Positions 1,447 through 64,000 are shown, counted from the stretch's first letter. The stretch is 64,000 nt of DNA from a virus (IMGVR_UViG_3300037485_000206:1867-65866), one strand, 5' to 3'. The notes: generated by a model from the sequence alone, not told the origin. Numbers and translations are program-made.

Positions 1447-1621
1447 ACTCGAGAATGGCGTTACCCCACCCACCCCCCACATCCCTTTTATACTCGCGTC
1501 GTTGCGTATATATATGAACACTGTTTCTGAACCACACATACTATTTTCTGTCTAATAGCCCCCCGGGGGTATATTATAAAAAATCATATATACTTTTGTC
1601 TAACGATGGACAAGTGCGGAC

Positions 1622-24806: not shown

Positions 24807-25288
24807 ATGAACTACTCCAGTTCCTAGCTAAAGCCGCCCCTGCCCTAGCAACAGCAGTTGCTGGCCCGCTAGGTGCTGTAGCTGTCTCTGCTATTGCCAA
24901 GCAGTTTGGTGTGGCAGACACGCTTGAAGCCGTGACGAAGGCCGTTGTCGAAGACCCAGAAGCTGCGCTCAAGCTGGCTCAGATTGATGTTGATAAGCTG
25001 AAGATGCAGTACGCGAACACTGCCGACGCTAGAGCCATGCAGGTCGCTGCGCTCAATCAGTCTGATGTCTTCTCCAAGCGGTTCACCATGTACCTGACTG
25101 CGTTCTGGTCAGTCTGCGCGGCGATCTACATCGGCTTTATTACTTTCAGCGTAATTCCAGATACAAATGTCCGGTTCGCCGACACCATCCTTGGGTTCAT
25201 CCTCGGTACGGTGATCGCCACCATGTTGAACTTCTGGTTTGGATCGAGCATTGGCAGCAAGGAAAAGGCAGAGGCAGCTAGGAAATGA
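24803..25288 (+). CDS. putative holin
   Basis: APALATAVAGPLG N-terminus, two TM segments, FWFGSSIGSK end. Confidence 0.7.
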   Translation: MNELLQFLAKAAPALATAVAGPLGAVAVSAIAKQFGVADTLEAVTKAVVEDPEAALKLAQIDVDKLKMQYANTADARAMQVAALNQSDVFSKRFTMYLTAFWSVCAAIYIGFITFSVIPDTNVRFADTILGFILGTVIATMLNFWFGSSIGSKEKAEAARK

Positions 25289-25512
25289 AGATCGCTGACT
25301 ACATCACCGTTATCTGCTGCTTGTCGTTGGCAATGGTACTTGTGGCTACCTGTTCGGCATCCTTGGTTGGCCTTTTTGATACAAAGGTTGATAACGGAGA
25401 ACTGTTCAAAATGCTTCAGCCCTCGTTCAATACCATTGTCGGAGCCTTTGTTGGCACCATTGCCGGTATCAAGATGGGTAAAGAGAACAAGGACAACGAG
25501 GACAAGAAATGA
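25285..25512 (+). CDS. two-TM membrane protein (lysis accessory?)
   Basis: Two hydrophobic helices, charged C-terminus. Confidence 0.6.
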   Translation: MKIADYITVICCLSLAMVLVATCSASLVGLFDTKVDNGELFKMLQPSFNTIVGAFVGTIAGIKMGKENKDNEDKK

Positions 25513-26021
25513 AAGCCAACTTTGAGTCCTGCCTAGCCAACCTCCTGAAGCATGAAGGTGGGTACGTCAACCACCCCTCCGATCCGGGCGGCATCACCAA
25601 TCTAGGCGTGACGAAAAAGGTGTGGGAAGAGTTCCTTGGTGCGCCTGTCCCAGACTCAGAGATGCAGCGCCTGACGCCCCAACTGGTTACGCCCCTATAC
25701 AAAAAGCTGTACTGGGACAAGATCAAAGGCGATAATCTCCCGACGGGTGTTGACTACTGCGTGTTCGATGCTGCTGTGAATAGTGGCGCTGGCCGTGCAT
25801 CCCGCTGGCTTCAGACGGCGGTTGGTGTCGAACCTGATGGGTCGCTTGGCCCAAAGACCTTTGCTGCTGTAGAGATCCTCCACCCAAAACTGCTGGTCTC
25901 TCGCTACTGCGAGCAGCGTCTCGCCTTCTTGCACCGCCTCGGCACATGGGAAACCTTCGGACGAGGGTGGGAACGCCGAGTCAAAGAAGTAGAAAGTACC
26001 GCACAGTCAATGTGCAAATGA
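25509..26021 (+). CDS. endolysin, glycoside hydrolase family 108 with PG-binding domain
   Basis: HEGGYVNHPSDPGGITNLGVT, FDAAVNSG, FGRGWERRV. Confidence 0.92.
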   Translation: MKANFESCLANLLKHEGGYVNHPSDPGGITNLGVTKKVWEEFLGAPVPDSEMQRLTPQLVTPLYKKLYWDKIKGDNLPTGVDYCVFDAAVNSGAGRASRWLQTAVGVEPDGSLGPKTFAAVEILHPKLLVSRYCEQRLAFLHRLGTWETFGRGWERRVKEVESTAQSMCK

Positions 26022-37400: not shown

Positions 37401-40400
37401 CGCCCGCCACCAATCAGATCTTTGCTCTGTATGAGAGCCTGTACGAGGTCAGCGACGTAGAGGCATACGACAAGACTACTGCTCGCAAAACCGCTGATGT
37501 CGAGACACTAGGGCGCACCCGCAACAAGGTGTCTAAAGAGGCTGATGTAGCCGCTCGCTTCCGTGAGGGAGATGTAAGGAAGGAAGTCGCCAATTCCCAA
37601 ACCATGCAGGATTTTGCCGACAAGGCAGGCCGCGAGTCAGAGGTGTATCTCGCCGCAAGCGCACAGTTTGCCAAGCGGCTAGGCGCTACTATCAACGAGT
37701 ACGGCGAACTCGAAGTAGGAGCCAACAAGCGCAACGGGGATAAGGTAGAAGCGGCAAACATAGAGCTTGATGAGATCGCTATGCGCGAAGGGCGTAAGAC
37801 CCCGGCATACAAAGCGGAACTGAAGAAGTCTGTCGAGCGCCTACAGGACGCGATCTCTTACAGCAATCAGACGCAACAGACCAAGCGCACGGAGCAAGTG
37901 GTTCGCAAGACTACCGTCGAGCCGACGACCATGCGTACAGGCTCCGAGGACAGCAAGGAAGGCGCTACCACCACCACGGTCAAGCGCGGCGCTACGTCAG
38001 CGGAGATCAGTCCTAAGCGCAAGCCTGCTCCTGCGGCAGCAGAAACGCCAGCCGCTGAACCCGCCGAGCAAGCCGAAGTGCCACGGTCAGCAACGGACAA
38101 GCGTGCGCCACCTACGGAAGAAGACGGCCCGCGTAAGCCGAAGGTCAGCCAGACGCCTGCGTCTCAAGAAAAGAAGCGGGACGAAACACCAGAGGAAGCC
38201 AAGGCCAGACTCGAAGCTGTAGCCGACAAGGCTAGAACGCTGCTGATAAAGGAGAGTGACCGCCTCGATGCATTTAGGAACGAGCTTACTGACTTAGAGG
38301 ATGAGTTAGATGCGAGTCAGGTCAGACTTGCTGAAGAAGAGGCGCAGGGCCGAGGAACTCCCACACGAGAGCTTGTGCGGGAGTACCAGAGCAGGATTGC
38401 GAACCAAAAGAATTCAATCAAGGCGCAGAACCTCGCGACCACCAGAGCGCATCTGGAGTACTCCGCAGCGGTTCGGGAAGCGCAAGCAGTCAAGGTTCCG
38501 CCAAAGGCAGCAGGGGAAAAGTTCCTGCGTGGCGTGGAGTCCAACAGCCCGGATCTGACGCCAGAGCAAGTTACTGCGCTGGAGAACAACAAGCTCACCG
38601 ATGCCCTGAAAAGCATTGCCGCCGACTCTCGCACCAGCAAGCTGAACAAAGCCGTGGCGCTGCGGTTGGCTGAACTGCTCGACAACACCAACATCAAGAT
38701 CGCCGCCAACGTCGCAGACCAGTCCGGGGCAAGCGCACTCGGCAAGGTCAACGTCAGCGGAACCCAGATCACGCTCAACCGCAAGGGCGGGCTGTCTCAA
38801 GAAACGCTGCTCCACGAAGGTACACACGCAGCGATTGAGCGTGTGCTGTCCATGCCAGACAGCCAGCTTACGGACATCCAGCGTGTCGCCAAGCGGGAAC
38901 TGATGGCACTCCACGCAGCCATCAAGAACGATCCGCGCATCACCAGCACGTTTGCCAAGGGCAGTCTGTCGGAGTTCACTGCCGAGGTGATGTCGAACCG
39001 CACGCTGCAACTGCAACTGAGCGACAAGAAGTGGAAGCTGTCCGACGCTTGGAAGGGCTTCAAGAGCATCGTGCTTCGTATGCTCGGCATCGAGCGCCCT
39101 GAGACCATGCTTGGCGCAGCGATTCAGTCAATCGATGCGTTGTTCACGCCGACGAGTATGCAGCAGAAGGGGCAGGCCAAGGGCACGAAGCTGTCCGCCA
39201 AGGACATCGCTGCGCTCCATACGGGTAGCAACTCGATGAAACAGTTTGCCGAGCAGTTCGGTACAGACTTCATCAAGCAAGCAGATCGTTCGCCGGAAGA
39301 TGCCGAACGAATCGGGCAAGATTATCTAGATCAGATGAGTTATAAGCCGGGAGATTTTGTTGCTCCTGCTGAAGAGACCAAGCTCTCATATAAAGCCATC
39401 ATGCCAGATGGGACGCCATATGACCCAGATAATGCGCTGCACTACATATCTGCCAGTGTGGAGACGTTTGCTATATTGCAAGCAGGCGGGAATGAAAATG
39501 TGCGTCGTCGAGAAGCAAGACAGATAACGAGAAAACGGGTAGATGCACTACGTCAGCTAGTCGACGATTTTTCGTTTAGTAGCCCATATACAAAAATTGA
39601 ACAAGCGCTTGTTGCTAAAGCAGCATCAAAGTACGCCATCATTGCAGACAAGAATGGGCGACTCAAAATAGCAGAAATTGCTACTAACAATAGACACCCT
39701 GTTGCCGTTGTTGGAAACAATGCGGTTGCTGCCATTATTCAAGAACTACGTGCTGGCAAGAGCCTTAAGGCGGCATTCCTTGACGGGCTGCAAAGTGAAG
39801 CCGACAAAAATGTTAAGCGTAATGGCAGCAAGAATGGGTGGCAAAAGTTTGAGCAGTCTGACGATCTCGACGATGCTGTTAAGCTAAACGCGGCTTGTGC
39901 AGGCACTTCTTGGTGTACGGCCAGTGGCGTAGAAACGGCATCGGATCAGTTAACTGATGGTGACTTTTACGTCAACTTCAAAGATGGGGTTCCTACAGTA
40001 GCTGTCCGTATGGACGGGAAAGACAAGATCGGGGAGGTTCGAGGACACACGCAAAATCAAGGGCTTACCGATGAGCAACAACAAATAGCCAAAGACTTTA
40101 TTAGCGCCAACAAGTTTGAAGGCTCTAGAGAGTATCTAAAGGAGATGGTTAAAAAAGAAACGCTTATCAGAGTCTTCCAGACTGGCTATATGACACCCAA
40201 AGACATATATGCTGTTGGAGCAGAGTACTCTTCGACAAGTGATGCAATAGAACCTAGCTGGGGGTGGTATAGATTTTCCAACCTAGATGGCTACAATCAA
40301 ATTCGGCCTAATCCCAGTGCTAAGGTGCTTAAGCGATTTACAGATATTTTAGAAATGTCTGTAGAACTGGCTATTGAAGACGGTCACTATGTTATTGGAT

Positions 40401-43400
40401 ACATAGCAGGAACTTATGGTAACGATATAACTGCCCCACTGACGTTTCATTTGGGGGCCCGCAGAAAGGGCGTATCTCTTAAAGAGATTAAGTCCGCTAG
40501 ACATCTTTTAGCAGAAAGCGGCCAATACCCAAATCTGGAATTTGCCCGAACTTTATCAATTGACTATTCGACTACTAAAGCAAAGTTTCCAAAGCTAAGA
40601 ACAATAGACAAGCTGATTCTTGAACAATCGTATTTTTATACAAAACCTGATAAAGGCGACGGCACTTTCTACTTTGCGGGCGACACAAAAGTTCGCGCTT
40701 TAGGGATAACCACACCGCGTACTGATAAGTACGGTACTTACACGGTTGATCTGAATGGCATAGAAACGGTTAGTGAAGATATTGGTATTATCGAGAGCCG
40801 TGAAGGCGGAAAAGCCCCGCTAATACTAAATTTTCCAGATATAAAATTTACCCCAATTCCAAATCTTGTATCTGAAAAGAAAGCAGAAGAAAGCATACTT
40901 AAAGCAGCGGCGGAGGTATTTAAAGCAGCCAATCTAAACAGAGATCTTTTTACTAACAATGATGCTTGGGGCGAGTTAGATGGGGATGGGGTAGAAGAAG
41001 CAGAAAGCATCCTCTTTAAATCAGAAAATGATTTTCTAAGAGCGCTGCCTACTGAAGCCCGAGTAGTTGCTAGAAGGGCTTTTGATGACTTTGACGAACT
41101 CAACCCTCCCGGCGACGACGGGAACGAGTCGTATGCAGAGCGCGTTTTTTCTGTTGTTCGCCACACTATAAAAACAGCAAAGGCAGACCCAGTGCAGGTC
41201 TATATGGCCCTGCTCCGCTCTTTTGACCGTACTGCTACTCTGCTTGGAGAAGATGTCAAAGTAAACTTGCCTCAGCGTATTGCGGATGCGCCCCCCATAT
41301 CGGAGGTCAACGACAACAACGAGGAGTTCCTCTACAGCAAGCCGATGTACGCCAACGACACGCTGGCTGCGGCGGGCGCTGTGGGTGACCAGTTCATCGC
41401 CAAGAACAAGTCTACGTATGAGAAGGTCAAGGCCAACGGCACTGGGCTGGCTTTTGAGACCAGCTACATAGACCGCTTCGCTGGCTTCGAGCGTCTGGCT
41501 AAGTTGATGCCTTCCCTCAAGGGCACGCAGATGATGTACTACCTGCGTATGTACGATCAGCGCATGAACTTCGTCTCGCAGTCCGTCTCTAGGGGCGCTC
41601 TGCAACTCGTCAAGAAGACACGCCCCGATGGCGGCAAAGAGTTCCTGATCGAGAGCAAGGAAGGTCCATCGTTGGCGGGCGTGGTTGGGATTCTGAAGGA
41701 CGCTACGAAGATGGTCGGCAACGGGGAGGGCGTCAACCGCCTGTTCACGCTGTACCTGTCAGCCATCCGCGCTAAATCCAAGGGGCTGGACGCGCTGCAT
41801 TTCGGTACTGCCCTGACGCAGGCCGATTTGGACAAAGCCATGAAGGCAATCCAAGACACCCCCGGGCTGGAGGCGATCTTCAAGCGTGCGCGTGATGAGT
41901 ACAACGCCTACAACCGGGGGCTGATTAACTTTGCGGTGCAGACCGATGCGCTCAGTAAAGACGTTGCGGCCACCCTGCTGAAGGAGAACGACTACATCCC
42001 TTGGTATCGCCAGCGCAACGGCGTGGCTGAGTTGGTCATCGGCAAGGAAACGCCCATCAACGTGGGCAACATCACCCACCAGCCGTACCTGAAAGAGCTT
42101 ATCGGGGGCGACACTCCGATCTTGGACTTCATGACCAGTTCTGTGCAGAACACGAATCTGCTCACAGACATGGCGCTGCGGAATCGAGCCACGCTGACCA
42201 GCGTCATGGAGTTGGTTGAGATGAAGCTTGCCAAGATCGGCAGCAAGAACATGGCGGGTCCGAACATCGTCAAGTTCCGCGTCGATGGCGAAGACCGAGC
42301 AGCCATGATCGATACCGACACGGCTGGCGTCGATGCGGACATCCTCGTCAAGGGGATGGAGGGCATCCCTGTTCAGTTGTCGGGCATAGCTCGGATACTG
42401 GCGTTCCCTGCCACCGTCTTACGCAAAGCGATCACGCTGTCTCCGCTGTACGTGGCACGGCAGTTGTTCCGTGACTCGTTGGCTGCACCGATTCTTTCTG
42501 GCGCTGACTTCTTGCCGATCATGGGGGCACTGAAGGAACTCAATAGCTCTACCAAGAGCACGCTGGAGAGCCGGGGCATTACGGGCGGACAGATATTCAC
42601 TGGTGGATCAGAAGACCTGACCAAGATCCTGCAAGACATCACGGACGGCAAGTCCACATGGATGCAGGGCATCAACAAGCTGCAAGCCATGAACATGGAG
42701 GCGGATGCGCTTACCCGTCGCGCTCAGTACAACAGCTACATCAAGCAAGGTCTGTCCGAGATGGAGGCCACGCTCATGGCGCTGGAGTCCATGAACTTCA
42801 ACAAGCGTGGCGCGTCTCCTAGTATCCACCTTGCCAACTCGTTGATCCCATTCTTCAACGCGCAGATCCAGTCGATGAACGTGCTGTACAAGGCGTTCAA
42901 CGGGAAGATGCCGTTTAACGAGCGTCTCAGGATCAAAGAAAAGCTCATCGAGCGTGGCCTGATTCTGGCGGGCATCTCCGTGACCTACGCTATAGCAATG
43001 CAGGACGACGAGGCATACAAGAACGCCACGCCTGACCAGAAGTACGGCAACTGGTTCTTCCGTATCCCGGGAATTGACGAGCCTCTCAGGTTCCCTATCC
43101 CGTTTGAAATCGGCTACATCTTCAAGGCGTTGCCCGAAGCGCTGGTCAACACGATGATGACAAAGCACGGCGGCGAAGAAGCAGTCGAGGCGTTTACAAC
43201 GATCTTCAAGCAACTCATTCCGGGCGGCACTTCTCTTGGCATCCCGCAAGCAATGAAGCCTGCCATCGAGGCAAAGCTTGGCAAGTCGTTCTACACAGGC
43301 CGCGACATCTTGAATCGCCAAGAGCAAGGGCTGCTGCCAGAACAACAGGTCCGCCCAGAGACCACCGAAGCATCCAAGTACATTGCCTCTGGCCTCGGTA

Positions 43401-43894
43401 TGTCACCGATCATTCTGGACGGTCTGGTGCAGGGCTATACCGGGACGATGGGCTTGGCGCTGCTGCAAGCCGTCAGCGCAGGGTTGCCGCTCAAGGGCGA
43501 AAAGGGACCGGAGCAAGCGTACAAGCGCCTGTCTGAAATGCCTGTGATCGGCGGGGCGTTCCAGCCCAACGATGCGGGCGGCATCATCACCAATGTGTAC
43601 GAGCGGATGCTGGAGATCCAGAAGCTCGACAATTCGGTGGACGCTCTTATCAGCAGGGGGCGGGTGGCAGACGCCAAGGAGTTGGTGGCCCAGCGCAGCA
43701 ACGAGTACATGATGTCGGAAGTCGCTGGCGAGTACATCTCAACAATCCGGGAACTTACGCAGTATGAGAACGCGATTAAGGCATCGGACCTTTCCCCAGA
43801 GGAAAAGCGTAAGAGGCTGGACGAGATCCGTAAGATGAAGATCAGGTACTCGGCGCAGTCGCGCCAAGCTGTAGATAAAACCACACTCCAATAA
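34439..43894 (+). CDS. 3151-aa large polyvalent virion protein (zincin HExxH, WCT domain, LPD38-like C-terminus)
   Basis: Uninterrupted ORF; LLHEGTHA...EFTAE; GTSWCTA; PFFNAQIQ...RFPIPFEIG. Confidence 0.85.
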   Translation: MPYTVELPDGRSVEFPDDVPKEKAAEIIRSQLGIGEGKKGLGAAVAKGTESMVSQMRSGLGGIFSSPEEAATAGLERGKGINTEYADQIGFDKVKEAYGRGLLPAAGEVIRQVPLALAEQLPNLATMAGGAKAGAMALARATPYGRIIGGIAGALAPSAVQQFGGNIERQAAEQQEAEQPVAIDRGAALAATAVQAPLDVLGNYIPLGGRLVGKLVGIPEKALLADTTGKVAKLAEEKLLATLAKGTGVGILAEVPTEVTQQMLERAQAGLSLTDADALKEYGETIYQTALLGPLGAVGRVSERAGARSQIDQQKQEEQRQAQILQANLEQQQQAATAAAQKQAEIEEAQYRQSPQFVADAEQAYATLQQEVATLNAALRTKVGPDDLAGVAARKEARDRLREINKDPKTAKIVQDYRDAQKMKPPAAGAPPAATPPAAAGTPAAAGPVLALPAPTPEEPAPEPKPEPLEGLMQQYDELEQQSNSLADRLQQAGAAKDTEAHSTLLEQYKGIEDRRKAIGAKIEQQGGVAGYALDKPPEEFKGLPVHQEELAEIEKKIKAATKAAENAGTNGEFALQNKALAKLDALNTQKQALQQDIEKRRDAIKKQQAVASTGTGETMPLFTKGEAPPSPAGVDTPNVTERARGLANKPSEAKPVPRRARAAKEETGPTTPNMFDQLAEQDRAEEERNLRERGQTRPLFTEEQAPLPKAETEDKAPQRYNTVKESGELIEGRSPRRDREGILDNAPEETRSEAGRMHDIFSPFNIYSTDLRNGELLGDFARNVGRAKDREARTQSLDAKAADQRRFMEAMEQRLNLPGRKRVRAVFPIQDFQPSKFQPFDPYVKTMDDIQALRDRIEQKGKANKSILQQAVDAYAAREKYNELLDKGVMPLLTPASMPLKFESWLKGIQKLNNKISYSKSVVPGEFTEVKPMPPLGMKDKVDALAAKAKGEKELTRPLTKNEIKQIRDKRDSADRVYNKLVTEKITPATNQIFALYESLYEVSDVEAYDKTTARKTADVETLGRTRNKVSKEADVAARFREGDVRKEVANSQTMQDFADKAGRESEVYLAASAQFAKRLGATINEYGELEVGANKRNGDKVEAANIELDEIAMREGRKTPAYKAELKKSVERLQDAISYSNQTQQTKRTEQVVRKTTVEPTTMRTGSEDSKEGATTTTVKRGATSAEISPKRKPAPAAAETPAAEPAEQAEVPRSATDKRAPPTEEDGPRKPKVSQTPASQEKKRDETPEEAKARLEAVADKARTLLIKESDRLDAFRNELTDLEDELDASQVRLAEEEAQGRGTPTRELVREYQSRIANQKNSIKAQNLATTRAHLEYSAAVREAQAVKVPPKAAGEKFLRGVESNSPDLTPEQVTALENNKLTDALKSIAADSRTSKLNKAVALRLAELLDNTNIKIAANVADQSGASALGKVNVSGTQITLNRKGGLSQETLLHEGTHAAIERVLSMPDSQLTDIQRVAKRELMALHAAIKNDPRITSTFAKGSLSEFTAEVMSNRTLQLQLSDKKWKLSDAWKGFKSIVLRMLGIERPETMLGAAIQSIDALFTPTSMQQKGQAKGTKLSAKDIAALHTGSNSMKQFAEQFGTDFIKQADRSPEDAERIGQDYLDQMSYKPGDFVAPAEETKLSYKAIMPDGTPYDPDNALHYISASVETFAILQAGGNENVRRREARQITRKRVDALRQLVDDFSFSSPYTKIEQALVAKAASKYAIIADKNGRLKIAEIATNNRHPVAVVGNNAVAAIIQELRAGKSLKAAFLDGLQSEADKNVKRNGSKNGWQKFEQSDDLDDAVKLNAACAGTSWCTASGVETASDQLTDGDFYVNFKDGVPTVAVRMDGKDKIGEVRGHTQNQGLTDEQQQIAKDFISANKFEGSREYLKEMVKKETLIRVFQTGYMTPKDIYAVGAEYSSTSDAIEPSWGWYRFSNLDGYNQIRPNPSAKVLKRFTDILEMSVELAIEDGHYVIGYIAGTYGNDITAPLTFHLGARRKGVSLKEIKSARHLLAESGQYPNLEFARTLSIDYSTTKAKFPKLRTIDKLILEQSYFYTKPDKGDGTFYFAGDTKVRALGITTPRTDKYGTYTVDLNGIETVSEDIGIIESREGGKAPLILNFPDIKFTPIPNLVSEKKAEESILKAAAEVFKAANLNRDLFTNNDAWGELDGDGVEEAESILFKSENDFLRALPTEARVVARRAFDDFDELNPPGDDGNESYAERVFSVVRHTIKTAKADPVQVYMALLRSFDRTATLLGEDVKVNLPQRIADAPPISEVNDNNEEFLYSKPMYANDTLAAAGAVGDQFIAKNKSTYEKVKANGTGLAFETSYIDRFAGFERLAKLMPSLKGTQMMYYLRMYDQRMNFVSQSVSRGALQLVKKTRPDGGKEFLIESKEGPSLAGVVGILKDATKMVGNGEGVNRLFTLYLSAIRAKSKGLDALHFGTALTQADLDKAMKAIQDTPGLEAIFKRARDEYNAYNRGLINFAVQTDALSKDVAATLLKENDYIPWYRQRNGVAELVIGKETPINVGNITHQPYLKELIGGDTPILDFMTSSVQNTNLLTDMALRNRATLTSVMELVEMKLAKIGSKNMAGPNIVKFRVDGEDRAAMIDTDTAGVDADILVKGMEGIPVQLSGIARILAFPATVLRKAITLSPLYVARQLFRDSLAAPILSGADFLPIMGALKELNSSTKSTLESRGITGGQIFTGGSEDLTKILQDITDGKSTWMQGINKLQAMNMEADALTRRAQYNSYIKQGLSEMEATLMALESMNFNKRGASPSIHLANSLIPFFNAQIQSMNVLYKAFNGKMPFNERLRIKEKLIERGLILAGISVTYAIAMQDDEAYKNATPDQKYGNWFFRIPGIDEPLRFPIPFEIGYIFKALPEALVNTMMTKHGGEEAVEAFTTIFKQLIPGGTSLGIPQAMKPAIEAKLGKSFYTGRDILNRQEQGLLPEQQVRPETTEASKYIASGLGMSPIILDGLVQGYTGTMGLALLQAVSAGLPLKGEKGPEQAYKRLSEMPVIGGAFQPNDAGGIITNVYERMLEIQKLDNSVDALISRGRVADAKELVAQRSNEYMMSEVAGEYISTIRELTQYENAIKASDLSPEEKRKRLDEIRKMKIRYSAQSRQAVDKTTLQ

Positions 43895-55430: not shown

Positions 55431-55855
55431 ACCTCACCCCCAATCCCATGCGCCTTCTCGATGGCACGGGCAAACTCGCATCTACCATCCTCAATGGTCG
55501 CGTCCACCAGCGCATACACCTCATCATCCGTCAGCGGCTTTGGTTGTTTTATAAAGCCCGCTCGCGCAAGCGTATCCCCTACCGTCATTAGCACGGGCCC
55601 GCGTGTCGTATCAGTGTCGATAGGGTGTTCGTTCCAAGTCTCCTGCAACAGCCCCTTCTCGCGCATATATTCCCACCCCTGCCTTACCTCTAATGGATCA
55701 GGCTGCGCGAGGGCAGCTTCCAAAGCGTCCATCGCCTCGTCAGTAACTTTGCACATACCTTGAGCATCAAGTCTGGGGTAGAAACTTTGAAACTCTACTT
55801 GGCATTTCTCAAGCGCCTCCAGCGCCTGTTCCGCTGCTTTTCTCAAGTCGTTCAT
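55427..55855 (-). CDS. hypothetical protein (MNDLRKAAEQALEAL...FARAIEKAHGIG)
   Basis: Typical modular phage termini. Confidence 0.65.
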   Translation of the reverse strand: MNDLRKAAEQALEALEKCQVEFQSFYPRLDAQGMCKVTDEAMDALEAALAQPDPLEVRQGWEYMREKGLLQETWNEHPIDTDTTRGPVLMTVGDTLARAGFIKQPKPLTDDEVYALVDATIEDGRCEFARAIEKAHGIGGEV

Positions 55856-56367
55856 GCTGCCAACCTCCAGAACGGATTGTTGTAGTCCTGCCATGTCACG
55901 CCGCGCTTGATCTGACTGACGGTGGACTGCACGATGCCGTACTTCGCGGCTATCACACGCTGCGACTCATTCGATGCCTTGATCTCTTGCACGATCTCCG
56001 GCGTTAACTTAGCGCGTGCCCTCGCCTTGATGCTGACCCGCGTGGCCTTGAGTAGGCGCTGCATGGCGTTGAACTGCGCATAGTTGCGCTCTTGCAGGGT
56101 CTTGCGTGTGATCTCCCCGATGTGCTCAAGCCTGACGCACTTAGAGTTCCCGCAGTTGTACGAGACAACGCGGTTGCCGTAGGGCTTCTTGCCCTGCGCT
56201 ATCTCCACCATGTATCTCCGCAAAGATACGCAGTGGCCTCCCTCTGCTCGGCGTATCGATGGGCTCATGCACTTGGATTGCACTGCGCCCGTCCAGTCCA
56301 TGCACTCCCCGTTTGGGATGCACTTCTCATAGACCCTATCCAGTAGTTCCTGTAGTTGTGTTTTCAT
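55852..56367 (-). CDS. degenerate His-Me finger (HNH-like) plus HTH protein
   Basis: CMDWTGA, CGNSKCVRLEH, QRVIAAKYGIVQSTVSQIK. Confidence 0.7.
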   Translation of the reverse strand: MKTQLQELLDRVYEKCIPNGECMDWTGAVQSKCMSPSIRRAEGGHCVSLRRYMVEIAQGKKPYGNRVVSYNCGNSKCVRLEHIGEITRKTLQERNYAQFNAMQRLLKATRVSIKARARAKLTPEIVQEIKASNESQRVIAAKYGIVQSTVSQIKRGVTWQDYNNPFWRLAA

Positions 56368-58787: not shown

Positions 58788-58932
58788 CTTCTGCCTCCTC
58801 TTCCTCGTTTGCGAGGCGTTCCTCCTCCGCCTCTTGTTCTGCAAGCCACTCCGCTTCCTCGTCCGCGTCGGTGTACTCCCACGCTGGGTCTGAGTCAGGT
58901 GGGTCTGGGCAGTCGCGCCATGAGCCGCTCAT
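58768..58932 (-). CDS. small highly acidic protein
   Basis: GGAGG RBS; D/E-rich. Confidence 0.6.
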   Translation of the reverse strand: MSGSWRDCPDPPDSDPAWEYTDADEEAEWLAEQEAEEERLANEEEEAEDEDALC

Positions 58933-59150
58933 AGTGTCACCTCCACTAATGCGTCGGTCTCGATCCACACCTTGGCTCCGCAGGACAGCGGAGACTCGGG
59001 GCTATACACCACACGGCTCGGGCCGTGGATCTGCACCTCGTGTGCGTAGGTGTTGCTCTTGTAGGTCTTAACGGTGAGCACCGGATCGTTGGCCCCCGTC
59101 TTGGCATTGGCCTTGATCACGTGCTGGTTGACGTGGATGATCGTTTTCAT
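58929..59150 (-). CDS. conserved small phage protein (MKTIIHVNQHVIKAN...LSCGAKVWIET)
   Basis: Recognisable widespread phage family; ATGA coupling. Confidence 0.75.
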   Translation of the reverse strand: MKTIIHVNQHVIKANAKTGANDPVLTVKTYKSNTYAHEVQIHGPSRVVYSPESPLSCGAKVWIETDALVEVTL

Positions 59151-59323
59151 TTCTTCCCCTTGGGGGGCTTCACGCCGACGCGGGACAGGGTGTCCTTCAT
59201 CTCCTGCCACGCCTTGTTCTCTCGGGCAATGGAGGCCTTAGCCAAGGCCATCATCTTCTCCTCTTCCTCGCGGATGAGTTTGCCCATGCATTCCAACTTC
59301 TTGTCGCTGTCTTTCTTGTCCAT
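59147..59323 (-). CDS. small charged protein (MDKKDSDKK...), absent from ORF track
   Basis: 58 aa; AGGAG RBS. Confidence 0.6.
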   Translation of the reverse strand: MDKKDSDKKLECMGKLIREEEEKMMALAKASIARENKAWQEMKDTLSRVGVKPPKGKK

Positions 59324-59341
59324 CTCTCTTCTCCTAGTTAA

Positions 59342-59364
59342 AAGGGGGACACCATGTCCCCCTT
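59342..59364. repeat. family-A palindrome variant AAGGGGGACA-CCA-TGTCCCCCTT
   Basis: Both arms altered, symmetry kept. Confidence 0.85.
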
Positions 59365-59369
59365 ACGAA

Positions 59370-60344
59370 TTACACCGTGATCAGATCAAAAGCCTTCTGC
59401 TTCAGATCATCGCCCTGTCCCCACAACGCTGACGCGATGCGGTTCTCCTCGCTCTGGCTGCGGATGTGCTGGTCAGCGTACTCGGTGACCGCGTTGAACC
59501 ATCCCCAGCCCGTCTCCCATGCGCTGTCGAGCGTGCTGCCCTTGCCGTCGCCACCGAACAGGCCGAGCACGCGGTTGTATCCAGCCGACGCACGGATCGC
59601 GTCCTCGTCCTTCTTGCCCGCCTTGAACAGGCGAAGCGTGAGGTCTTGCGCCTTCTCAGCGTTGACCTTGATAGCCGTGAGGTTGCGTGCCATCAGCATG
59701 AACGCACCGAACTCCTCGTGCGCTGCCTCGACTGCCTTGCGAGCATCGTTGGGTTGGAACTTACTGCGATGAGTAGTGCGGTGGCAAGCCGCAGTTCCCC
59801 GAGCCAACTGGAAGGTGTTGTTGCACACCGTGCGAACGCCAGTCACCCGGCTCTCCGTAGCCAGCGAACCATCCGCCGAGGTGGACAGCAGCACGTAGGG
59901 CACGACCTTGTCGCGGTGATTGCCGTACCCCAGATCCACCGCGTCCGACAACTTGGCGGTGGCGAAGTACTTCCCGCCGCTGAACAGCACGCCAGCCGAC
60001 TCGATGGTCAGGCCACCCTGATCCGTCCAGTCACGGAAGAACTCCAGCACTTCCTTGGGCTGCACGACCTTGTAAGAAGCCGACACCACGCCGAGGTGCT
60101 TCTTGTTGTCCGAACGGAAGAGCACGACCTTGTCCTCGATCTTGCCCATGTCCTCGGCGGACTGGCCGCGCTCGGTGGCGAAGCGAACGAAGCCGCGCTG
60201 CACTTCGTAGTCCATGCCAGCCTGCTTCTGCCACTCCTCGACAGACGCGCCGCGAGTCATGAGTTGGCCGAGACCGTGCCACTCACGCTCCGTAGATGCG
60301 TACTGAGCGGTTCCGTTGCTGTTGAATGCGATTTGATGAGCCAT
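59370..60344 (-). CDS. DUF932 family protein
   Basis: WHGLG, LGVVSASYKVVQP, SAGVL..G, STSADGS, VRTVCNNT, NAVTEYADQ. Confidence 0.85.
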   Translation of the reverse strand: MAHQIAFNSNGTAQYASTEREWHGLGQLMTRGASVEEWQKQAGMDYEVQRGFVRFATERGQSAEDMGKIEDKVVLFRSDNKKHLGVVSASYKVVQPKEVLEFFRDWTDQGGLTIESAGVLFSGGKYFATAKLSDAVDLGYGNHRDKVVPYVLLSTSADGSLATESRVTGVRTVCNNTFQLARGTAACHRTTHRSKFQPNDARKAVEAAHEEFGAFMLMARNLTAIKVNAEKAQDLTLRLFKAGKKDEDAIRASAGYNRVLGLFGGDGKGSTLDSAWETGWGWFNAVTEYADQHIRSQSEENRIASALWGQGDDLKQKAFDLITV

Positions 60345-60356
60345 TTCTATCTCCTT

Positions 60357-60386
60357 GGGTTGTGCCAGTGTCCGACTGGCGGCGGT
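60357..60386 (-). repeat. family-B hairpin element, copy 1 (covarying stem GCCAGT/ACTGGC)
   Basis: GTGCCAGT-GTCCG-ACTGGC-GGCGGT. Confidence 0.9.
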
Positions 60387-60404
60387 AACGCTTGGATGTC
60401 TAAC

Positions 60405-60434
60405 ATTATACATGCTCCCACAGGTGTGGGAGCA
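60405..60434 (-). promoter_or_regulatory. TATAAT box with a 10-bp inverted repeat where the -35 should be
   Basis: ATTATA at 60405-60410; TGCTCCCACA-GG-TGTGGGAGCA at 60413-60434. Confidence 0.5.
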
Positions 60435-60444
60435 GGGTTCTTAC

Positions 60445-61119
60445 TTAGATCTTGAGGCTAACGGTGACGTTGTTGAGCACCTCCTCGATGACCTCGCGCA
60501 CCGCGTCCTCGTCGATCTCGCCCACCGGATGGATGTCGTCATGGTCGTACTCGGAGTTGTGATCGGAGACTGCCTCCTCTGCTTCTGCCCGTGCCACCTC
60601 CCTAGCAGCCTCGCGCACCGCGTCAACGAACTCGCCGCTGTCGGCGAGCGCGGTGACCAGTGGGTTGAGGAACTCATCACCCATCGTGTGCTTGTCGATG
60701 ATCTTGATCACCGCAAGGCGGAACTGCTCGCTCGTCAGATCCAGCGTTGCCGTAGTGGCGGGACGCTGCGCGTTTTCCAACGCATCGATGCGCTTGGCGT
60801 CGTCCCTCTGGTCAATCCCGAGGCTCTCGATCTGAACGGCGCGGGCGGACAGACGCTGCTCCAACTCCGTGATGCGTCGTGCGTTCTCCATCTGGTCGTT
60901 GTCTTGGCAGTTCATAAGACTGCCTACTTGCTCTTCCAACTTCTCGATGCGCTCGGTCAGGGCAAGCAGCGCTACCGTCAGGTCGGTCTCCAGCCGCTCG
61001 ATGCGCTCGGTCAGGGTGAACACCTTGGCCTCGACACGCTTGTCGATGTGCTCCGTCAGGTTAGCGAGCATGGCATCGAGGATGCCGCCGAGGACGTTGA
61101 TGTTGGTGTTTGCATTCAT
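60445..61119 (-). CDS. coiled-coil acidic early protein
   Basis: LTERIERLE repeats; GGAG RBS. Confidence 0.7.
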   Translation of the reverse strand: MNANTNINVLGGILDAMLANLTEHIDKRVEAKVFTLTERIERLETDLTVALLALTERIEKLEEQVGSLMNCQDNDQMENARRITELEQRLSARAVQIESLGIDQRDDAKRIDALENAQRPATTATLDLTSEQFRLAVIKIIDKHTMGDEFLNPLVTALADSGEFVDAVREAAREVARAEAEEAVSDHNSEYDHDDIHPVGEIDEDAVREVIEEVLNNVTVSLKI

Positions 61120-61147
61120 GGTTCGTATCTCCAAAGGTAGTAACAAG

Positions 61148-61180
61148 GTGCCGGTGACCGACCGGCGGCGGTGTATCAAT
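61148..61180 (-). repeat. family-B hairpin element, copy 2
   Basis: GTGCCGGT-GACCG-ACCGGC-GGCGGTGTATCAAT. Confidence 0.9.
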
Positions 61181-61562
61181 CCTCGTCATCGCCGCCCATC
61201 GCCTCGTCCCAAGGGTCATCGCTGCCCCCGGGTTGTGCGTCGAACGTGGCGTGGGGTTCAAGTGTGCCGTCCTCGTTGACTGCGCTGACGCCGCCGTCGA
61301 GATCGATCTCTTGGTTCTCTCCCGCAGTTGCGTGAGTCTCAAGCAGCGCCTTGACTGCTTCATCCAAGAACCCCTGCCGCTCGTCTGGCGCGAACTCACC
61401 ATCGCCACGAGTGCTGGCTGCATACACATGATCGCCCCCATGATCGGGATAGAACGCGCTGAAGCACCCATGCCTAAGCCGCAGGTATCCGATCTGCGTG
61501 TCGTCTAGGTAGACGTTGTATTGCTCAGGCATTGCCGAGCACGTTTGTTCAATCTTCACCAT
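61176..61562 (-). CDS. early hypothetical protein
   Basis: TCSAMPEQY...GYLRLRHG; AGGAG RBS. Confidence 0.7.
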   Translation of the reverse strand: MVKIEQTCSAMPEQYNVYLDDTQIGYLRLRHGCFSAFYPDHGGDHVYAASTRGDGEFAPDERQGFLDEAVKALLETHATAGENQEIDLDGGVSAVNEDGTLEPHATFDAQPGGSDDPWDEAMGGDDED

Positions 61563-61575
61563 CTCATTTCTCCTA

Positions 61576-61606
61576 GTGGTTGTGCCGGTGACCGACCGGC
61601 GGCGGT
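61576..61606 (-). repeat. family-B hairpin element, copy 3
   Basis: GTGGTTGTGCCGGT-GACCG-ACCGGC-GGCGGT. Confidence 0.9.
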
Positions 61607-61641
61607 CTAGCAGTAAGACCCCAAATAGCGTATTTAGAGTC

Positions 61642-61875
61642 CTAGCCTTTTCTCAGGTACTGTGCGTCTTGTAGCGCTCGCTCGTAGCCTCGCACATATG
61701 AAACCAGCGCGTGGTACAGCCCGATCTCGCTTCTGGCTTGCAGCATGGTGCGGTTGTCGTAGTGGATGACCCAGATACCATCCTCGCGCCGGAAGGGCTT
61801 GTACTCGCTGGTGCTGGTGCATGACAGCGCAGCGAGGCGGTCGATAACTAGGGGGATTCTTTTCGCGTCTGCCAT
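61642..61875 (-). CDS. early hypothetical protein (MADAKRIP...)
   Basis: GGAG RBS. Confidence 0.6.
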   Translation of the reverse strand: MADAKRIPLVIDRLAALSCTSTSEYKPFRREDGIWVIHYDNRTMLQARSEIGLYHALVSYVRGYERALQDAQYLRKG

Positions 61876-61876
61876 A

Positions 61877-61981
61877 TCAGTTCTCCAAGTAGCCAAGGAA
61901 TAGAGCGACGAGCGTCGCGAGGAATGCAGCAGCAATCAACCAGTCGGTGATGTGGTGCCACGTATTTTTGGTGTCCTTCAT
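61877..61981 (-). CDS. 34-aa single-TM peptide, absent from ORF track
   Basis: MKDTKNTWHHITDWLIAAAFLATLVALFLGYLEN; AGGAG RBS. Confidence 0.6.
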   Translation of the reverse strand: MKDTKNTWHHITDWLIAAAFLATLVALFLGYLEN

Positions 61982-62011
61982 TGCTTTCTCCTGTTGTTGA
62001 TAGTAGACATT

Positions 62012-62038
62012 GAACCGGGGACATCATGTCCCCGGTTC
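62012..62038. repeat. family-A palindrome (13-bp arms, centre C)
   Basis: GAACCGGGGACAT-C-ATGTCCCCGGTTC. Confidence 0.95.
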
Positions 62039-62044
62039 CCTCCG

Positions 62045-62659
62045 TTAAGCGCAGACCAGCCGCTTGACCTCGGTCTTGATGACCTCCTCGCGCACCTCCA
62101 CCACCTCGATGCGGCATGACTCGTTGTCCTCCTTGACGTAGCCCGTGATGAACATGCGGATCGTCAGGGGTTTCTTGAAGAAGTCGTCGAGTTCCCATAC
62201 GCGGTCGCTTTTGCGTAGCCACTTGACCGATGGGTGCGATGCGCTGATGTGCAGCGGTACTTCCTTGGTGAACTCATACGACCGTCCCCGGTGGTTGTTG
62301 GAGTAGGTCTGATCCTTCGTGGGCATCGCCGTCCACTCGGGCGTGAGGTACAGGGAGAGCAAGCGCAGCAGTCGCTTGTCGTCCTTGATGCTGTCCAGAT
62401 CATTGATCACGATGCTGATGCTCACCACCGATGCGTACTGGCTCGCGTCCACGTAGATGTGCTGGTTGGGGCCGACGTAGTCCATCGCTTTACCGCACCA
62501 CCCACGTTCCTTCTTATACGCGGCAGGGATCGCGTCGAACACACGCTTCACCTCGGGGTGCGTGATGTTGTCCGAGCGCACGGTTTGCATGTGCCGCGCT
62601 GCGGCGTTGCTGATGCGGTCGTTCTTGATGCGCTGCGCGAAAGTTTGAGTCTTAGCCAT
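62045..62659 (-). CDS. early hypothetical protein
   Basis: 204 aa; AAGGAG RBS; YVKED..SCRI.V C-terminus. Confidence 0.75.
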   Translation of the reverse strand: MAKTQTFAQRIKNDRISNAAARHMQTVRSDNITHPEVKRVFDAIPAAYKKERGWCGKAMDYVGPNQHIYVDASQYASVVSISIVINDLDSIKDDKRLLRLLSLYLTPEWTAMPTKDQTYSNNHRGRSYEFTKEVPLHISASHPSVKWLRKSDRVWELDDFFKKPLTIRMFITGYVKEDNESCRIEVVEVREEVIKTEVKRLVCA

Positions 62660-62686
62660 TTCAATTCTCCTTGGGCGTTGCCCGTT

Positions 62687-62732
62687 GTGGTTGTGCCGGT
62701 GTCCGACCGGCGGCGGTGTATCAATAGATCAG
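62687..62732 (-). repeat. family-B element, copy 4 (46 bp identical to copy 5)
   Basis: GTGGTTGTGCCGGTGTCCGACCGGCGGCGGTGTATCAATAGATCAG. Confidence 0.95.
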
Positions 62733-63175
62733 AACTCTTCGTTTGGTGACAGGTTGTGGCAGTAGTCCGCCACGCCCGAGTCGTAGCCGCGCCTGTACAT
62801 ATGGCGCAGATCGTCTTGCTCGTACTTGCAGTCCTCGATGCCCTCCTCCACCCCGTCGCGATAGCCGATAGCGAACGCCTTGAGTTGGTCATAAGGGACG
62901 ATCTTGATCTGCGCGACCCGTGCTTGGGCTATTGCTTCGCGCTTCATGTCGTCGTAGTAGCCCGAGCCATCGAGGAAGTGCTGCGGGCTGTCGTAGTTGC
63001 AGCCATGCAGATAGGCTTCGCCCAGCGTGTGGCCCATGCGTTGCGCCTCGACACGCACGACGAAGGCATCGTCTGGCCTGTCCAGATCGCGGCTCGCCGT
63101 TGTGACGATCTCGAAGCCCGACACCTTCTCGCGCTTGACCGCGCCGAACTCATCCCAGTTGTTGAATGCATACAT
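62729..63175 (-). CDS. early hypothetical protein
   Basis: LGEAYLHGCNY...GYYDDM; YRRGYDSG; RBS. Confidence 0.75.
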   Translation of the reverse strand: MYAFNNWDEFGAVKREKVSGFEIVTTASRDLDRPDDAFVVRVEAQRMGHTLGEAYLHGCNYDSPQHFLDGSGYYDDMKREAIAQARVAQIKIVPYDQLKAFAIGYRDGVEEGIEDCKYEQDDLRHMYRRGYDSGVADYCHNLSPNEEF

Positions 63176-63189
63176 CTCAGTTCTCCTAA

Positions 63190-63235
63190 GTGGTTGTGCC
63201 GGTGTCCGACCGGCGGCGGTGTATCAATAGATCAG
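63190..63235 (-). repeat. family-B element, copy 5
   Basis: Identical 46-mer to 62687-62732. Confidence 0.95.
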
Positions 63236-63579
63236 CGTCCGTAGTCGCCCTTCACGTATTCCCACGGCGAGATGTTCGCTTGCTTGTCTGCCTTTTGCTG
63301 CTCGAAGTACTTGATGGCATCCACCAAGCGTTGGGCGTACCGCTCGTTGACCTCCATCGCCTTGGCGAAGAGCACCGATGCCTTCTCTTCTTGCTCGGCG
63401 CACTCAGCCTCGGTGATGGTGGGCACGACGACCACCTCGATGCCCACTACGTGCCCGTACTCGTCCTTCAGCACCGCCAAGGTTGGCGCATCGATGAGCA
63501 GGGGTGCGTTCGAGGGGTGGAACGTCTTGCCGTCCCACCAGTTGGTGTTGAACGTATTGAACGCGATGTAGTTCTTCAT
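63232..63579 (-). CDS. early hypothetical protein (MKNYIAFNTF...)
   Basis: AAGGAG RBS. Confidence 0.7.
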   Translation of the reverse strand: MKNYIAFNTFNTNWWDGKTFHPSNAPLLIDAPTLAVLKDEYGHVVGIEVVVVPTITEAECAEQEEKASVLFAKAMEVNERYAQRLVDAIKYFEQQKADKQANISPWEYVKGDYGR

Positions 63580-63590
63580 TTCATTTCTCC

Positions 63591-63800
63591 TTAGTTCACC
63601 ATTACCCGCGCCGTGGTCAGCGCGTCGTCTTTGTGGGTTGTGGAATATTGAGCGGGGATTTGCTCGATACCGTTCTTGAACAGCCGCACCAGATACTCCT
63701 CCCATTCGGGATCCCAATACACCTTGGCCTCCCAAGATACTGTGGTGGTGCCCACCTTATGTGTGCGCTGCACGGTATCGATTAACTCGGGCTTCTTCAT
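63591..63800 (-). CDS. early hypothetical protein
   Basis: AKVYWDPEWEEYLVRLF...KDDALTTA; RBS. Confidence 0.7.
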   Translation of the reverse strand: MKKPELIDTVQRTHKVGTTTVSWEAKVYWDPEWEEYLVRLFKNGIEQIPAQYSTTHKDDALTTARVMVN

Positions 63801-63819
63801 CTCTCTTCTCCTTGGGTTG

Positions 63820-63844
63820 AACCGGGGACACCATGTCCCCGGTT
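63820..63844. repeat. family-A palindrome (11-bp arms, CCA centre)
   Basis: AACCGGGGACA-CCA-TGTCCCCGGTT. Confidence 0.95.
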
Positions 63845-63854
63845 TGTTGGTTGA

Positions 63855-64000
63855 TCAGTAATGCACGCCAGCACGCTGGACGAAGCCGTCAGTCTCGCGC
63901 TTTGCCTTGGCCTTGGCATAGAGGGCAACCACTACGCCTCCCGGCTCGATGTGGCGCACATCGGTCTCGTCGCCGTCGATGACAGGCCAGCCCCTGAACG
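63855..64000 (-). CDS. C-terminus of a GP88-like protein (partial)
   Basis: Manual translation: FRGWPVIDGDETDVRHIEPGGVVVALYAKAKAKRETDGFV. Confidence 0.6.
   Translation of the reverse strand, partial: FRGWPVIDGDETDVRHIEPGGVVVALYAKAKAKRETDGFVQRAGVHY

Follow-up and report, generated by a model that had tools for sequence, protein, structure and literature searches.

Two alternating elements, a palindrome and a predicted 22-nt pseudoknot, between exchangeable early genes of a tailed phage of ~65.7 kb

The early region of a tailed phage of ~65.7 kb was analyzed in the virus record IMGVR_UViG_3300037485_000206, a sequence of 65,866 nucleotides (nt) rated complete. The window, i.e., the whole stretch of DNA under analysis, is 64,000 nt long and corresponds to bases 1867-65866 of this record. 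In the leftward early operon, an array of small, mostly ORFan genes is headed by two types of repeated elements, i.e., a 25-nt palindrome (family A) and a 22-nt element predicted to fold as a pseudoknot (family B). Genes are exchanged between relatives at these elements. We read them as RNA-level punctuation between cistrons and as joints for recombination, and this reading, taken as a whole, has about an even chance of being right.

Family A was searched with GGGGACANNATGTCCCC at up to two mismatches. The 12 matches in the window represent six palindromic sites, each found on both strands, with the cores at 230-246, 731-747, 1426-1442, 59345-59361, 62017-62033, and 63824-63840. Shuffled sequences gave a mean of 0.10 matches, and 12 matches were attained in 0 of 100 shuffles. 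Family B gave five matches in the window (60364-60385, 61150-61171, 61584-61605, 62695-62716, and 63198-63219), compared with a mean of 0.01 in shuffled sequences, and five were attained in 0 of 100. Neither A nor B was found in the ~57 kb separating the two ends of the window. A preliminary description of this DNA, made from the sequence alone, had given the same six A and five B copies and the same empty ~57 kb, and it is confirmed against the shuffles. Three further A copies lie in the stretch of the record outside the window, i.e., nine unique A and five B copies in the genome.

On the gene strand, B reads CCGCC-GCCRGT-CGGNC-ACYGGC. The element was first taken for a plain hairpin; the covariation of its tail and loop indicates instead a compact H-type pseudoknot of 22 nt. 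As predicted, three bases of the 5' tail bind the first three bases in the loop of a hairpin of 6 base pairs (bp), and the 3-bp helix is stacked on the 6-bp helix with two joining loops of 2 nt. The strict B pattern was found as 59 copies in 57 other viral contigs; B is thus present in at least this many and is not a code peculiar to this phage. A Shine-Dalgarno (SD) sequence and an ATG follow on the same strand within 57 nt in 58 of the 59 copies, and the free R/Y pair of the stem is Watson-Crick in all 59.

The pairing between tail and loop was examined by a scan in which two of the three pairs, i.e., four bases, were left free, with a context filter blind to pairing; the 22-mers were counted over loci L012-L068 and L217-L267. 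Among the matches listed, 14 unique 22-mers passed the context filter, and both free pairs were Watson-Crick in 12 of them, with seven paired combinations (CC/GG, AC/GT, AT/AT, CA/TG, CG/CG, GC/GC, and GG/CC). The other 37 unique hits among the matches listed formed both pairs in 11 cases, with G.U counted, and several of them are true sites missed by the filter. In an alignment of 30 sequences (alignment A2, distinct from the element of that name below), the nine pairs were formed in 98.1% of cells versus 87.0% after shuffling (0/500), and the covariation score was 0.302 versus 0.085 (0/500). Slid registers on the same alignment were 14-44% paired. Pair 6-19 was CG in 17 sequences, GC in 5, AU in 3, UA in 1, UG in 1, and other in 2; pair 7-18 was CG in 19, GC in 3, AU, GU, UA, and UG in 1 each, and other in 3. 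Most columns of the B stem were set by the search patterns and are uninformative either way. Because pairing of tail and loop would make no sense in duplex DNA, B would act as a single strand, and its constant orientation relative to the gene that follows makes mRNA the simplest choice for this strand. B is therefore very probably a structured single-stranded element, most likely RNA.

The surroundings of B are also distinctive. G is depleted on both flanks in 61 contexts, i.e., 2-7 of 61 at positions -5 to -1 and 0-7 of 61 at +2 to +6, with a background of 29%. A hairpin lies within 45 nt upstream in 18 of 61 distinct contexts among the matches listed, compared with 6.6% of random 45-mers, in a count that also took in later loci of the scan; several of the contexts are related, and this is a hint only. 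The genes after B include some named by reading their N-termini as AAA ATPase (in an abundant group of 33-36 kb), HU-like, YqaJ-like exonuclease, RdgC-like, and DUF932, of which DUF932 alone was tested. The complete genomes with B carry five copies (this phage, G000), four (G003), and one in each of three others. No protein is common to all of them: G000 and G004 have none in common, and G000 shares with G001 and G002 a lysis pair and one open reading frame (ORF) of 73 amino acids (aa) alone. B thus seems to need no dedicated phage partner.

A search of 185,579 bacterial and archaeal genomes gave 69 copies of B, in which the R/Y pair is Watson-Crick in 42 and A..C in 24. B was rejected as a host genomic motif, since most of the 68 loci in these 185,579 species genomes lie in G+C-rich coding DNA, with stem bases that do not pair. 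About seven of the bacterial or archaeal loci resemble phage leaders by eye (L095, L100, L109, L111, L114, L122, and L134). On L111, a contig of Anaerotruncus massiliensis, two B-like sequences stand 55 nt apart at 7845-7921 in a setting unlike that of a phage leader, each within a short direct repeat with GCGGCAAACCCAAAA in front. On inspection of the sequence, B lacks the consensus bases or the topology of a sigma-54 or sigma-70 promoter, of a mimic of the tRNA T-arm, the anticodon arm, or an RNase P substrate, or of a preQ1-type aptamer. Rfam 15 gave no match over the window at the gathering score; between 59000 and 64000 the lone weak match was ncS16, with 18.5 bits versus a threshold of 48. 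Nothing relevant was matched by Rfam on six related loci, and six strings of 14-17 nt from A or B were absent from ~8.4 million full texts. To our knowledge, no protein that binds B and no effect of B on stability has been reported.

Family A is a 25-nt palindrome, AACCGGGGACA-NNN-TGTCCCCGGTT, and is perfect in seven of nine copies. As RNA, it is predicted to form a stem of 11-12 bp with a 3-nt loop, leaving the SD unpaired, at a minimum free energy of -17 to -25 kcal/mol (z-scores -2.2 to -3.7). The three central bases vary, i.e., TCA, TGA, or TGG in this phage, and six different centers occur in the complete relative G003 (63.4 kb). In G003 the same slots hold ATTCGAGGACA-NNN-TGTCCTCGAAT, in eight near-perfect copies and one decayed copy. 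Between the two phages three stem positions are altered on both arms, in all copies. In distant loci, hairpins beside B elements have different outer stems and the same GACA-N3-TGTC top.

The first ~210 nt of the record are repeated at its end, one 6-nt indel apart, which makes the map either circular or terminally redundant, the unit being ~65,656 nt. Because the record ends overlap, the element-bearing patches at the two ends of the window are one continuous array. It runs leftward from the divergent gap to window position 1, through record bases 1866-217 outside the window, and from window position 64000 to 59341, with all of its genes on the minus strand. In the order of transcription the elements are A1-A7, B1, B2, A8, B3, B4, B5, and A9. 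The array of small genes with two types of headers stood as described, since 13 of the 16 genes E1-E16 carry an element. The genes without an element of their own, i.e., E5, E8, and E12, each start no more than 15 nt behind the preceding gene.

The placement of the elements beside ribosome-binding sites was largely borne out: an ATG with an SD lies 13-35 nt past the element end in 12 of 14 cases, but at 144 nt for A1 and 453 nt for A5. After each fold comes a G-poor, C/A-rich linker, then a strong SD and the ATG. The pentamer CAACC, said to follow the elements often, does so for four of five B copies, but for only three of nine A copies. The features of the array are as follows, in the order of transcription (window coordinates).

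1573-1602, minus strand: PE, early sigma-70-type promoter TAGACA-18-TATAAT, 11/12 matches; heads the leftward array.
1422-1446, minus strand: A1, palindrome in the leader, 144 nt upstream of the E1 ATG, with a single C.T mismatch in its outer stem; L008 and L010 conserve it.
819-1277, minus strand: E1, first early gene, 152 aa, no family match.
727-751, minus strand: A2, perfect 25-nt palindrome, 18 nt before the E2 ATG.
298-708, minus strand: E2, ORFan cassette, 136 aa; in L008, not in L010 or G003.
226-250, minus strand: A3, perfect palindrome ending 20 nt upstream of the E3 ATG, with CAACC and SD in between.
1-205, minus strand: 5' part of E3 (72 aa in full); extends past the left end of the window.
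63855-64000, minus strand: 3' end of E6 (246 aa in full, Pfam GP88); the remainder is outside the window.
63820-63844, minus strand: A7, perfect palindrome ending 19 nt upstream of the E7 ATG, with CAACC and SD in between.
63591-63800, minus strand: E7, 69 aa.
63232-63579, minus strand: E8, 115 aa, 11 nt behind E7 with no intervening element.
63198-63219, minus strand: B1, predicted 22-nt pseudoknot (tail CCGCC, stem GCCGGT/ACCGGC, loop CGGAC), 22 nt before the E9 ATG.
62729-63175, minus strand: E9, 148 aa; cassette not in G003 and skipped in a metagenome contig.
62695-62716, minus strand: B2, predicted pseudoknot, 35 nt before the E10 ATG, with a GGGC-AAC-GCCC mini-hairpin between B2 and the SD.
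62045-62659, minus strand: E10, 204 aa, 70% identical in G003.
62013-62037, minus strand: A8, perfect palindrome, 31 nt before the E11 ATG.
61642-61981, minus strand: E11 (34 aa) and E12 (77 aa), abutting.
61584-61605, minus strand: B3, predicted pseudoknot, 21 nt before the E13 ATG.
61176-61562, minus strand: E13, 128 aa, phrog_21607; cassette replaced in a metagenome contig.
61150-61171, minus strand: B4, predicted pseudoknot, 30 nt before the E14 ATG.
60445-61119, minus strand: E14, 224 aa, 48% identical in G003.
60406-60433, minus strand: composite of a terminator-like hairpin GCTCCCAC/GTGGGAGC (60414-60433) and an extended -10 sequence TGTATAAT (60406-60413).
60364-60385, minus strand: B5, predicted pseudoknot (compensated stem GCCAGT/ACTGGC), 19 nt upstream of the E15 ATG.
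59370-60344, minus strand: E15, DUF932 protein, 324 aa, 84% identical in G003.
59341-59365, minus strand: A9, variant palindrome AAGGGGGACA/TGTCCCCCTT followed by TTTTAA; last element of the array.
59147-59323, minus strand: E16, 58 aa; no A or B downstream.

Among the early proteins, the homologs of E1 are 84% identical in L010, 78% in L008, and 38% in G003, and its AlphaFold2 model is of low confidence, with a mean predicted local distance difference test score of 62.4. Of 10 early proteins scanned, DUF932 (E15) alone passed the Pfam cut-off, whereas PHROG gave matches for three, all to groups of unknown function; E6 belongs to the Pfam family GP88. The naming of the array genes as host-takeover genes goes beyond these data, as the family matches are just DUF932 and GP88.

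Three other non-coding features were seen within or near the array. Just upstream of A3, at window 251-297 on the minus strand, a third repeated element, conserved and non-coding, of ~48 nt lies between a stop codon and A. The module is also present at L008:~3085-3132 and L010:~6383-6430 and ~6674-6721, accompanies some A copies, and has a hairpin stem that covaries between copies (GGCCCC..GGGGTC, GACCC..GGGTC, and GCCCTC-TTCG-GAGGGC). A mini-hairpin of the form GGGC-N3-4-GCCC, with a fixed stem and a variable loop, abuts an AAGGAG SD at window 62663-62690 on the minus strand and in L012, L042, L057, and L289:3340-3356; it may tune translation. In the record outside the window, between A5 and A6, ~420 nt at L003:843-1262 hold no convincing ORF. 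This stretch, ~79% conserved in L010, has a ~60-nt TATATA-rich run followed by AGGAGG; an origin, a promoter region, and a gene for a small RNA are candidate identities.

The elements were first described as recombination points, and this is upheld by relatives and metagenome contigs, in which the breakpoints of gene content fall at elements. In locus L010, which has the same A sequence, colinear homology from the promoter region ends at the ATG after A2 and restarts at E5, and two unrelated small genes between A copies occupy the place of E2-E4. The module of A4, linker, SD, and ATGAA is identical at 50 of 50 nt in L010, where it heads the E5 homolog, i.e., a different gene. Three classes of linker follow A, and their order and downstream genes differ in L010. 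A tandem pair of A copies is found in both L008 and L010. Metagenome contigs were interpreted where they cover the stretch. A contig of run X2 is identical to window 60860-61180 and 61569-61817, with 175 other letters replacing E13 exactly from the B4 flank to the B3 flank, and a contig of run X3 joins 62722 to 63241, so that E9 and one B copy are skipped. Among these contigs, no junction of an excised mini-circle was reported.

In G003, twelve of the genes are shared (E1, E7, E8, E10, E11, E14, E15, E16, E18, E19, E20, and E21), and E2-E6, E9, E12, E13, and E17 are not. The type of element is kept at the orthologs, i.e., A before E7 and E11, and B before E10, E14, and E15, where the copy before the E14 homolog has a 6-nt loop. 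A relative with the same gene order but without the motifs was thus not what was found, as the elements of G003 stand in the same positions. At L289:10000-10500, between the G003 homologs of E15 and E16, an apparent gene of ~160 codons by eye is inserted on the opposite strand where A9 sits in this phage; it would be another insertion at an element site. The modules are near-identical along the array and between relatives, and so provide crossover points for homologous recombination. From these comparisons, it is probable, with good confidence, that the elements serve as joints of homologous recombination.

The strands diverge at an A+T-rich gap at window ~1450-1750, where PE lies on the minus strand. 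Sigma-70 spacing had been reported as missing from the elements. A search for sites with two hexamers and spacing gave none in window 58800-64000 and none in record 1-2779, which agrees with this, but PE heads the array and a perfect extended -10 sequence, TGTATAAT, follows the terminator-like hairpin just upstream of B5. The head of the array in G003 has the same hexamers and spacing as PE. G003 carries the module of hairpin and TGTATAAT twice, at a distance of 8 nt from B, and B there starts 9 nt past the -10 hexamer, which would place the pseudoknot within a base or two of the 5' end of the transcript. B1-B4 have no recognizable promoter. In distant members of the abundant 33-36-kb group (L137-L216, 80 loci), a sigma-70-like promoter mostly stands in place of B before the AAA ATPase gene. 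It directly precedes a stem-loop of ~35 nt, the outer stem of which covaries and encloses a small hairpin, and a C/A-rich linker and SD come next. This stem-loop had no Rfam family match and looks like a further candidate leader RNA motif, standing where close relatives have B. These phages thus seem to have in common a leader that opens with a structured element. Stabilizer stem-loops at 5' ends are known to give leaders a similar structured start.

The proposed mechanism is as follows. Host RNA polymerase would start the leftward early operon at PE, a strong sigma-70 promoter. The A and B folds would be transcribed into a polycistronic message, with one fold between most of the small genes. 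There they would obstruct decay entering from the 5' or the 3' end and shield the ribosome site of each cistron from neighboring sequence, and each cassette would be expressed independently of its neighbors. Ordinary homologous recombination at the modules of element, linker, SD, and ATG would insert, delete, or replace ORFan cassettes. The part concerning stability and insulation is tentative, and we hold it to be slightly less probable than its opposite.

Several observations weigh against this mechanism. None of the sequencing runs listed as carrying this DNA was an RNA run. For B1-B4 to lie at 5' ends, an endonuclease would have to cleave within the A/U-rich stretch directly in front of them. 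In B, the 6-bp stem is near-invariant, mostly because the patterns imposed it; if real, this hints at a specific binder over a purely structural role. In the imperfect A copies, which are few and partly related, there are four sense-strand G.T pairs versus 10 A.C/C.A pairs, i.e., the mismatches suggest no RNA signature and, if anything, point to the other strand. A is identical within a genome and different between relatives, which a sequence-specific binder would fit as well as recombinational homogenization. Finally, genes shared with G003 number 7 of 15 in the element-rich part (E1-E15) versus 5 of 6 in E16-E21, and this difference in turnover is small.

The strongest rival concerns A alone. 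In it, A is a duplex-DNA operator for a phage-encoded dimeric regulator, with stoperator-like copies for roadblock or shut-off, and B is a separate RNA element. A perfect dyad with invariant arms and a freely varying 3-bp center is what such an operator would have, and the lack of a G.U excess in imperfect copies and the location of A1 in the leader downstream of PE agree with it. That copies are identical within a genome and have both arms changed together between relatives recalls the co-evolution of a site and its protein. The operator explains this concerted change and the free center at least as well as the RNA fold. The arms of the palindrome are, however, 11-14 bp long, and it is placed with respect to the gap between stop codon and SD, not to promoters. 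Distant phages with other outer arms retain the GACA-N3-TGTC top, which is odd for private pairs of operator and repressor, and A and B alternate in one slot. No candidate regulator was found either: the early proteins scanned (10 in one scan and nine in another) matched no DNA-binding family, and the model of E1 is poor. The operator is improbable, although the best of the alternatives.

The geometry of the A core also occurs in mycobacteriophages of cluster O. Their 17-bp dyad has 7-bp arms around a free 3-bp center and recurs without variation tens of times in a genome (more than 30 copies), often between genes and with no known function, which is in favor of an operator for A (PMC4351075). 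Unlike A, the dyad described there is genome-wide, often inside genes, untied to the spacing of ribosome-binding sites, and without a second element (PMC4351075).

Somewhat less likely again is that the elements are terminators or attenuators that isolate the cassettes, with antitermination setting the read-through, like the stem-loop half of the promoter/stem-loop (PeSL) elements of T4-type phages. The stems are stable and G+C-rich, and the PeSL stem-loops, often GGGG...CCCC, are reported to have ended transcription in a lacZ test (PMC2839356). A9, a variant with a G5/C5 stem, precedes TTTTAA and is the sole A copy before a T run and the sole terminator-like one; the hairpin before B5 is likewise followed by a U-rich stretch and a new promoter. 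The other eight A and all five B copies are followed by C/A-rich sequence with no T run. One promoter stands before seven successive A copies, and efficient termination would silence most of the array. The covarying pairing of tail and loop in B would be superfluous in a terminator.

The elements are very unlikely to be promoters of two classes for a hairpin-reading polymerase of N4 type, perhaps contained in the 3151-aa virion-region protein. They do lie 13-35 nt before gene starts, the mismatch bias of imperfect A copies gives template-strand G.T pairs, and such a giant virion protein is encoded at 34439-43894. N4 early promoters have a 3-nt hairpin loop, as A does. The loop bases of A vary freely, however, and the giant protein matches LPD38 alone. 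The T7-type RNA polymerase profile PF00940 was unmatched in five of five B-carrying genomes; the control genomes were likewise without a match, and very divergent polymerases would escape it. Host-type promoters head the array and directly precede B in three cases, so B is transcribed and is not a start signal.

Equally slight is the chance that the elements are sites of a dedicated mobility system without a role in expression, e.g., attC-like, like miniature inverted-repeat transposable elements or repetitive extragenic palindromes, or sites of hairpin-guided transposition: the exchange of cassettes precisely at elements, the CAACC on both sides of some A copies, and the tandem A pairs of L008 and L010 would suit it, but the crossovers lie in shared linker, SD, and ATG, as plain homologous exchange predicts, B is always co-oriented with the downstream gene start, and no recombinase was found. 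The complete genome gave no match to tyrosine recombinase (PF00589), serine recombinase (PF00239), or Y1 transposase, profiles that matched in 14/14, 12/14, and 6/14 control genomes, respectively; the absence of an integrase, as stated in the preliminary description, is thereby borne out, and the integron analogy of that description fails. Integron attC sites are imperfect palindromes in which extrahelical bases mark the recombined strand. The array is like an integron in its promoterless small cassettes, bounded by palindromic sites behind one upstream promoter. It differs in that the palindromes are short, perfect, and without such extrahelical bases, and in that the exchange fits homologous and not site-specific recombination.

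Other systems were compared with the reading of the elements as message punctuation. The RNase III sites of T7 lie between the early genes of a host-transcribed message, define mRNA ends, and stabilize the pieces. The likeness is that one host-transcribed early message is punctuated by structures between cistrons. Those of T7, however, are bulged hairpins of greater length and unrelated sequence, and the 11-bp stem and 9-bp pseudoknot of the present array are short for RNase III. The leader pseudoknot of T4 gene 32 and the leader stem-loop of ompA are 5' folds affecting the control of translation or decay that depends on the 5' end. They share with B a compact fold near the 5' end, followed by an unstructured stretch and a ribosome site, whereas B, at 22 nt, is much more compact than these and recurs in front of numerous unrelated genes across many phages.

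Cluster K mycobacteriophages carry start-associated sequences (SAS), a 13-bp motif including the SD, and extended forms (ESAS) with imperfect 17-bp arms and a 4-13-bp spacer, as given in the part of the source at hand (PMC3203893). Similar to A and B, they are repeats tied to start codons before many unrelated genes, in one orientation and kept at orthologs, with an inverted repeat just upstream in a subset; no function has been assigned to them, and they are suspected to act in translation initiation (PMC3203893). In that part, they belong to phages of actinobacterial hosts, with no pseudoknot and no link to cassette exchange reported (PMC3203893).

The closest analogy is that of the PeSLs. 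PeSLs are intergenic modules, short and conserved, with a stem-loop of a G run and a C run and with SD and ATG at their end, and they flank ORFan genes in plastic early regions (PMC2839356, PMC4122927). By these accounts, their recombination deletes, inserts, and replaces cassettes, with crossovers between the SD or the -10 and the ATG, and the defining feature of each copy is a strong sigma-70-like early promoter, AT-rich in its upstream part (PMC2839356, PMC4122927). The present array likewise has stable stem-loops beside SD and ATG in gaps between ORFan genes, and the indels and replacements between relatives (L010, L008, the metagenome contigs, and G003) are bounded by elements. The composite of hairpin, TGTATAAT, and B5 is built alike. 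The analogy drawn at first thus stands for the shuffling and for this composite, but not for the other 13 of 14 elements, which are without a promoter. Since the defining promoter is missing from them, the array is not a member of the PeSL family. It also differs in its two alternating folds, one of them a predicted pseudoknot, and in belonging to an unrelated phage type of ~65 kb.

The array is the promoter-proximal ~8 kb of the leftward early unit and lies ahead of the replication genes. On the plus strand, window 1684-43894 encodes terminase, portal, and virion genes, a glucosaminidase/transglycosylase protein, and a 3151-aa LPD38 protein. The minus strand from 46959 up encodes a DUF927 primase-like protein, SNF2 helicase, PD-(D/E)XK nuclease, and family A DNA polymerase, and further small minus-strand genes lie between the replication genes and the array, up to ~59300. 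No tRNA or transfer-messenger RNA genes were found. The large terminase subunit has its best match, ~51% amino-acid identity, in Pelagibacter phage HTVC027P and similar phages. No close relative of the early region was found among 50,697 deposited phages, of which 17 records cover 1-2% each.

Four proteins outside the array were recorded. The 3151-aa virion-region protein (34439-43894, plus strand) has an LPD38 domain near its C-terminus as its sole recognizable part, and no PDB relative, PHROG match, or informative atlas hit was obtained for it. A 171-aa protein (55852-56367, minus strand) gave weak matches to HNH/His-Me endonuclease and helix-turn-helix domains, all under the Pfam cut-offs, and may be a homing-endonuclease-like gene among the replication genes. 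The lysis genes are a holin-like membrane protein (24803-25288, plus strand) and a GH108 endolysin with a peptidoglycan-binding domain (25509-26021, plus strand), which are ~80% and 55-58% identical, respectively, to genes in the otherwise unrelated 33-36-kb phages G001 and G002. These lysis genes are common to this phage and the abundant 33-36-kb group, which suggests a common host pool; on these identities, the lysis module looks like one exchanged within that pool.

The array shows modular shuffling at conserved leader modules without promoters in an unrelated phage type, and the very small and widespread motif B is probably new. It is possible, though still less likely than a role in stability and insulation, that B is a new class of 22-nt pseudoknot RNA, i.e., a portable leader module in phages of one host pool that is read by a host component, e.g., the decay machinery or the ribosome. 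Together with the genome-specific hairpin A, it would then form a two-tier code that sorts early cistrons and lets cassettes be exchanged without rewiring their expression. B would rank among the smallest conserved structured RNA motifs known, abundant in uncultivated phages, and it could be used as a sequence tag for the starts of early or middle genes in their genomes. If it is true that a part of 22 nt protects or insulates a cistron, such a part would be useful in synthetic operons. Most ORFan genes of phages are kept in the early regions, where many probably act against the host, and their rapid turnover is only partly understood. The present array extends PeSL-like shuffling beyond the T4 group, with joints that carry no promoter, and the use of a leader module as a recombination linker may be general.

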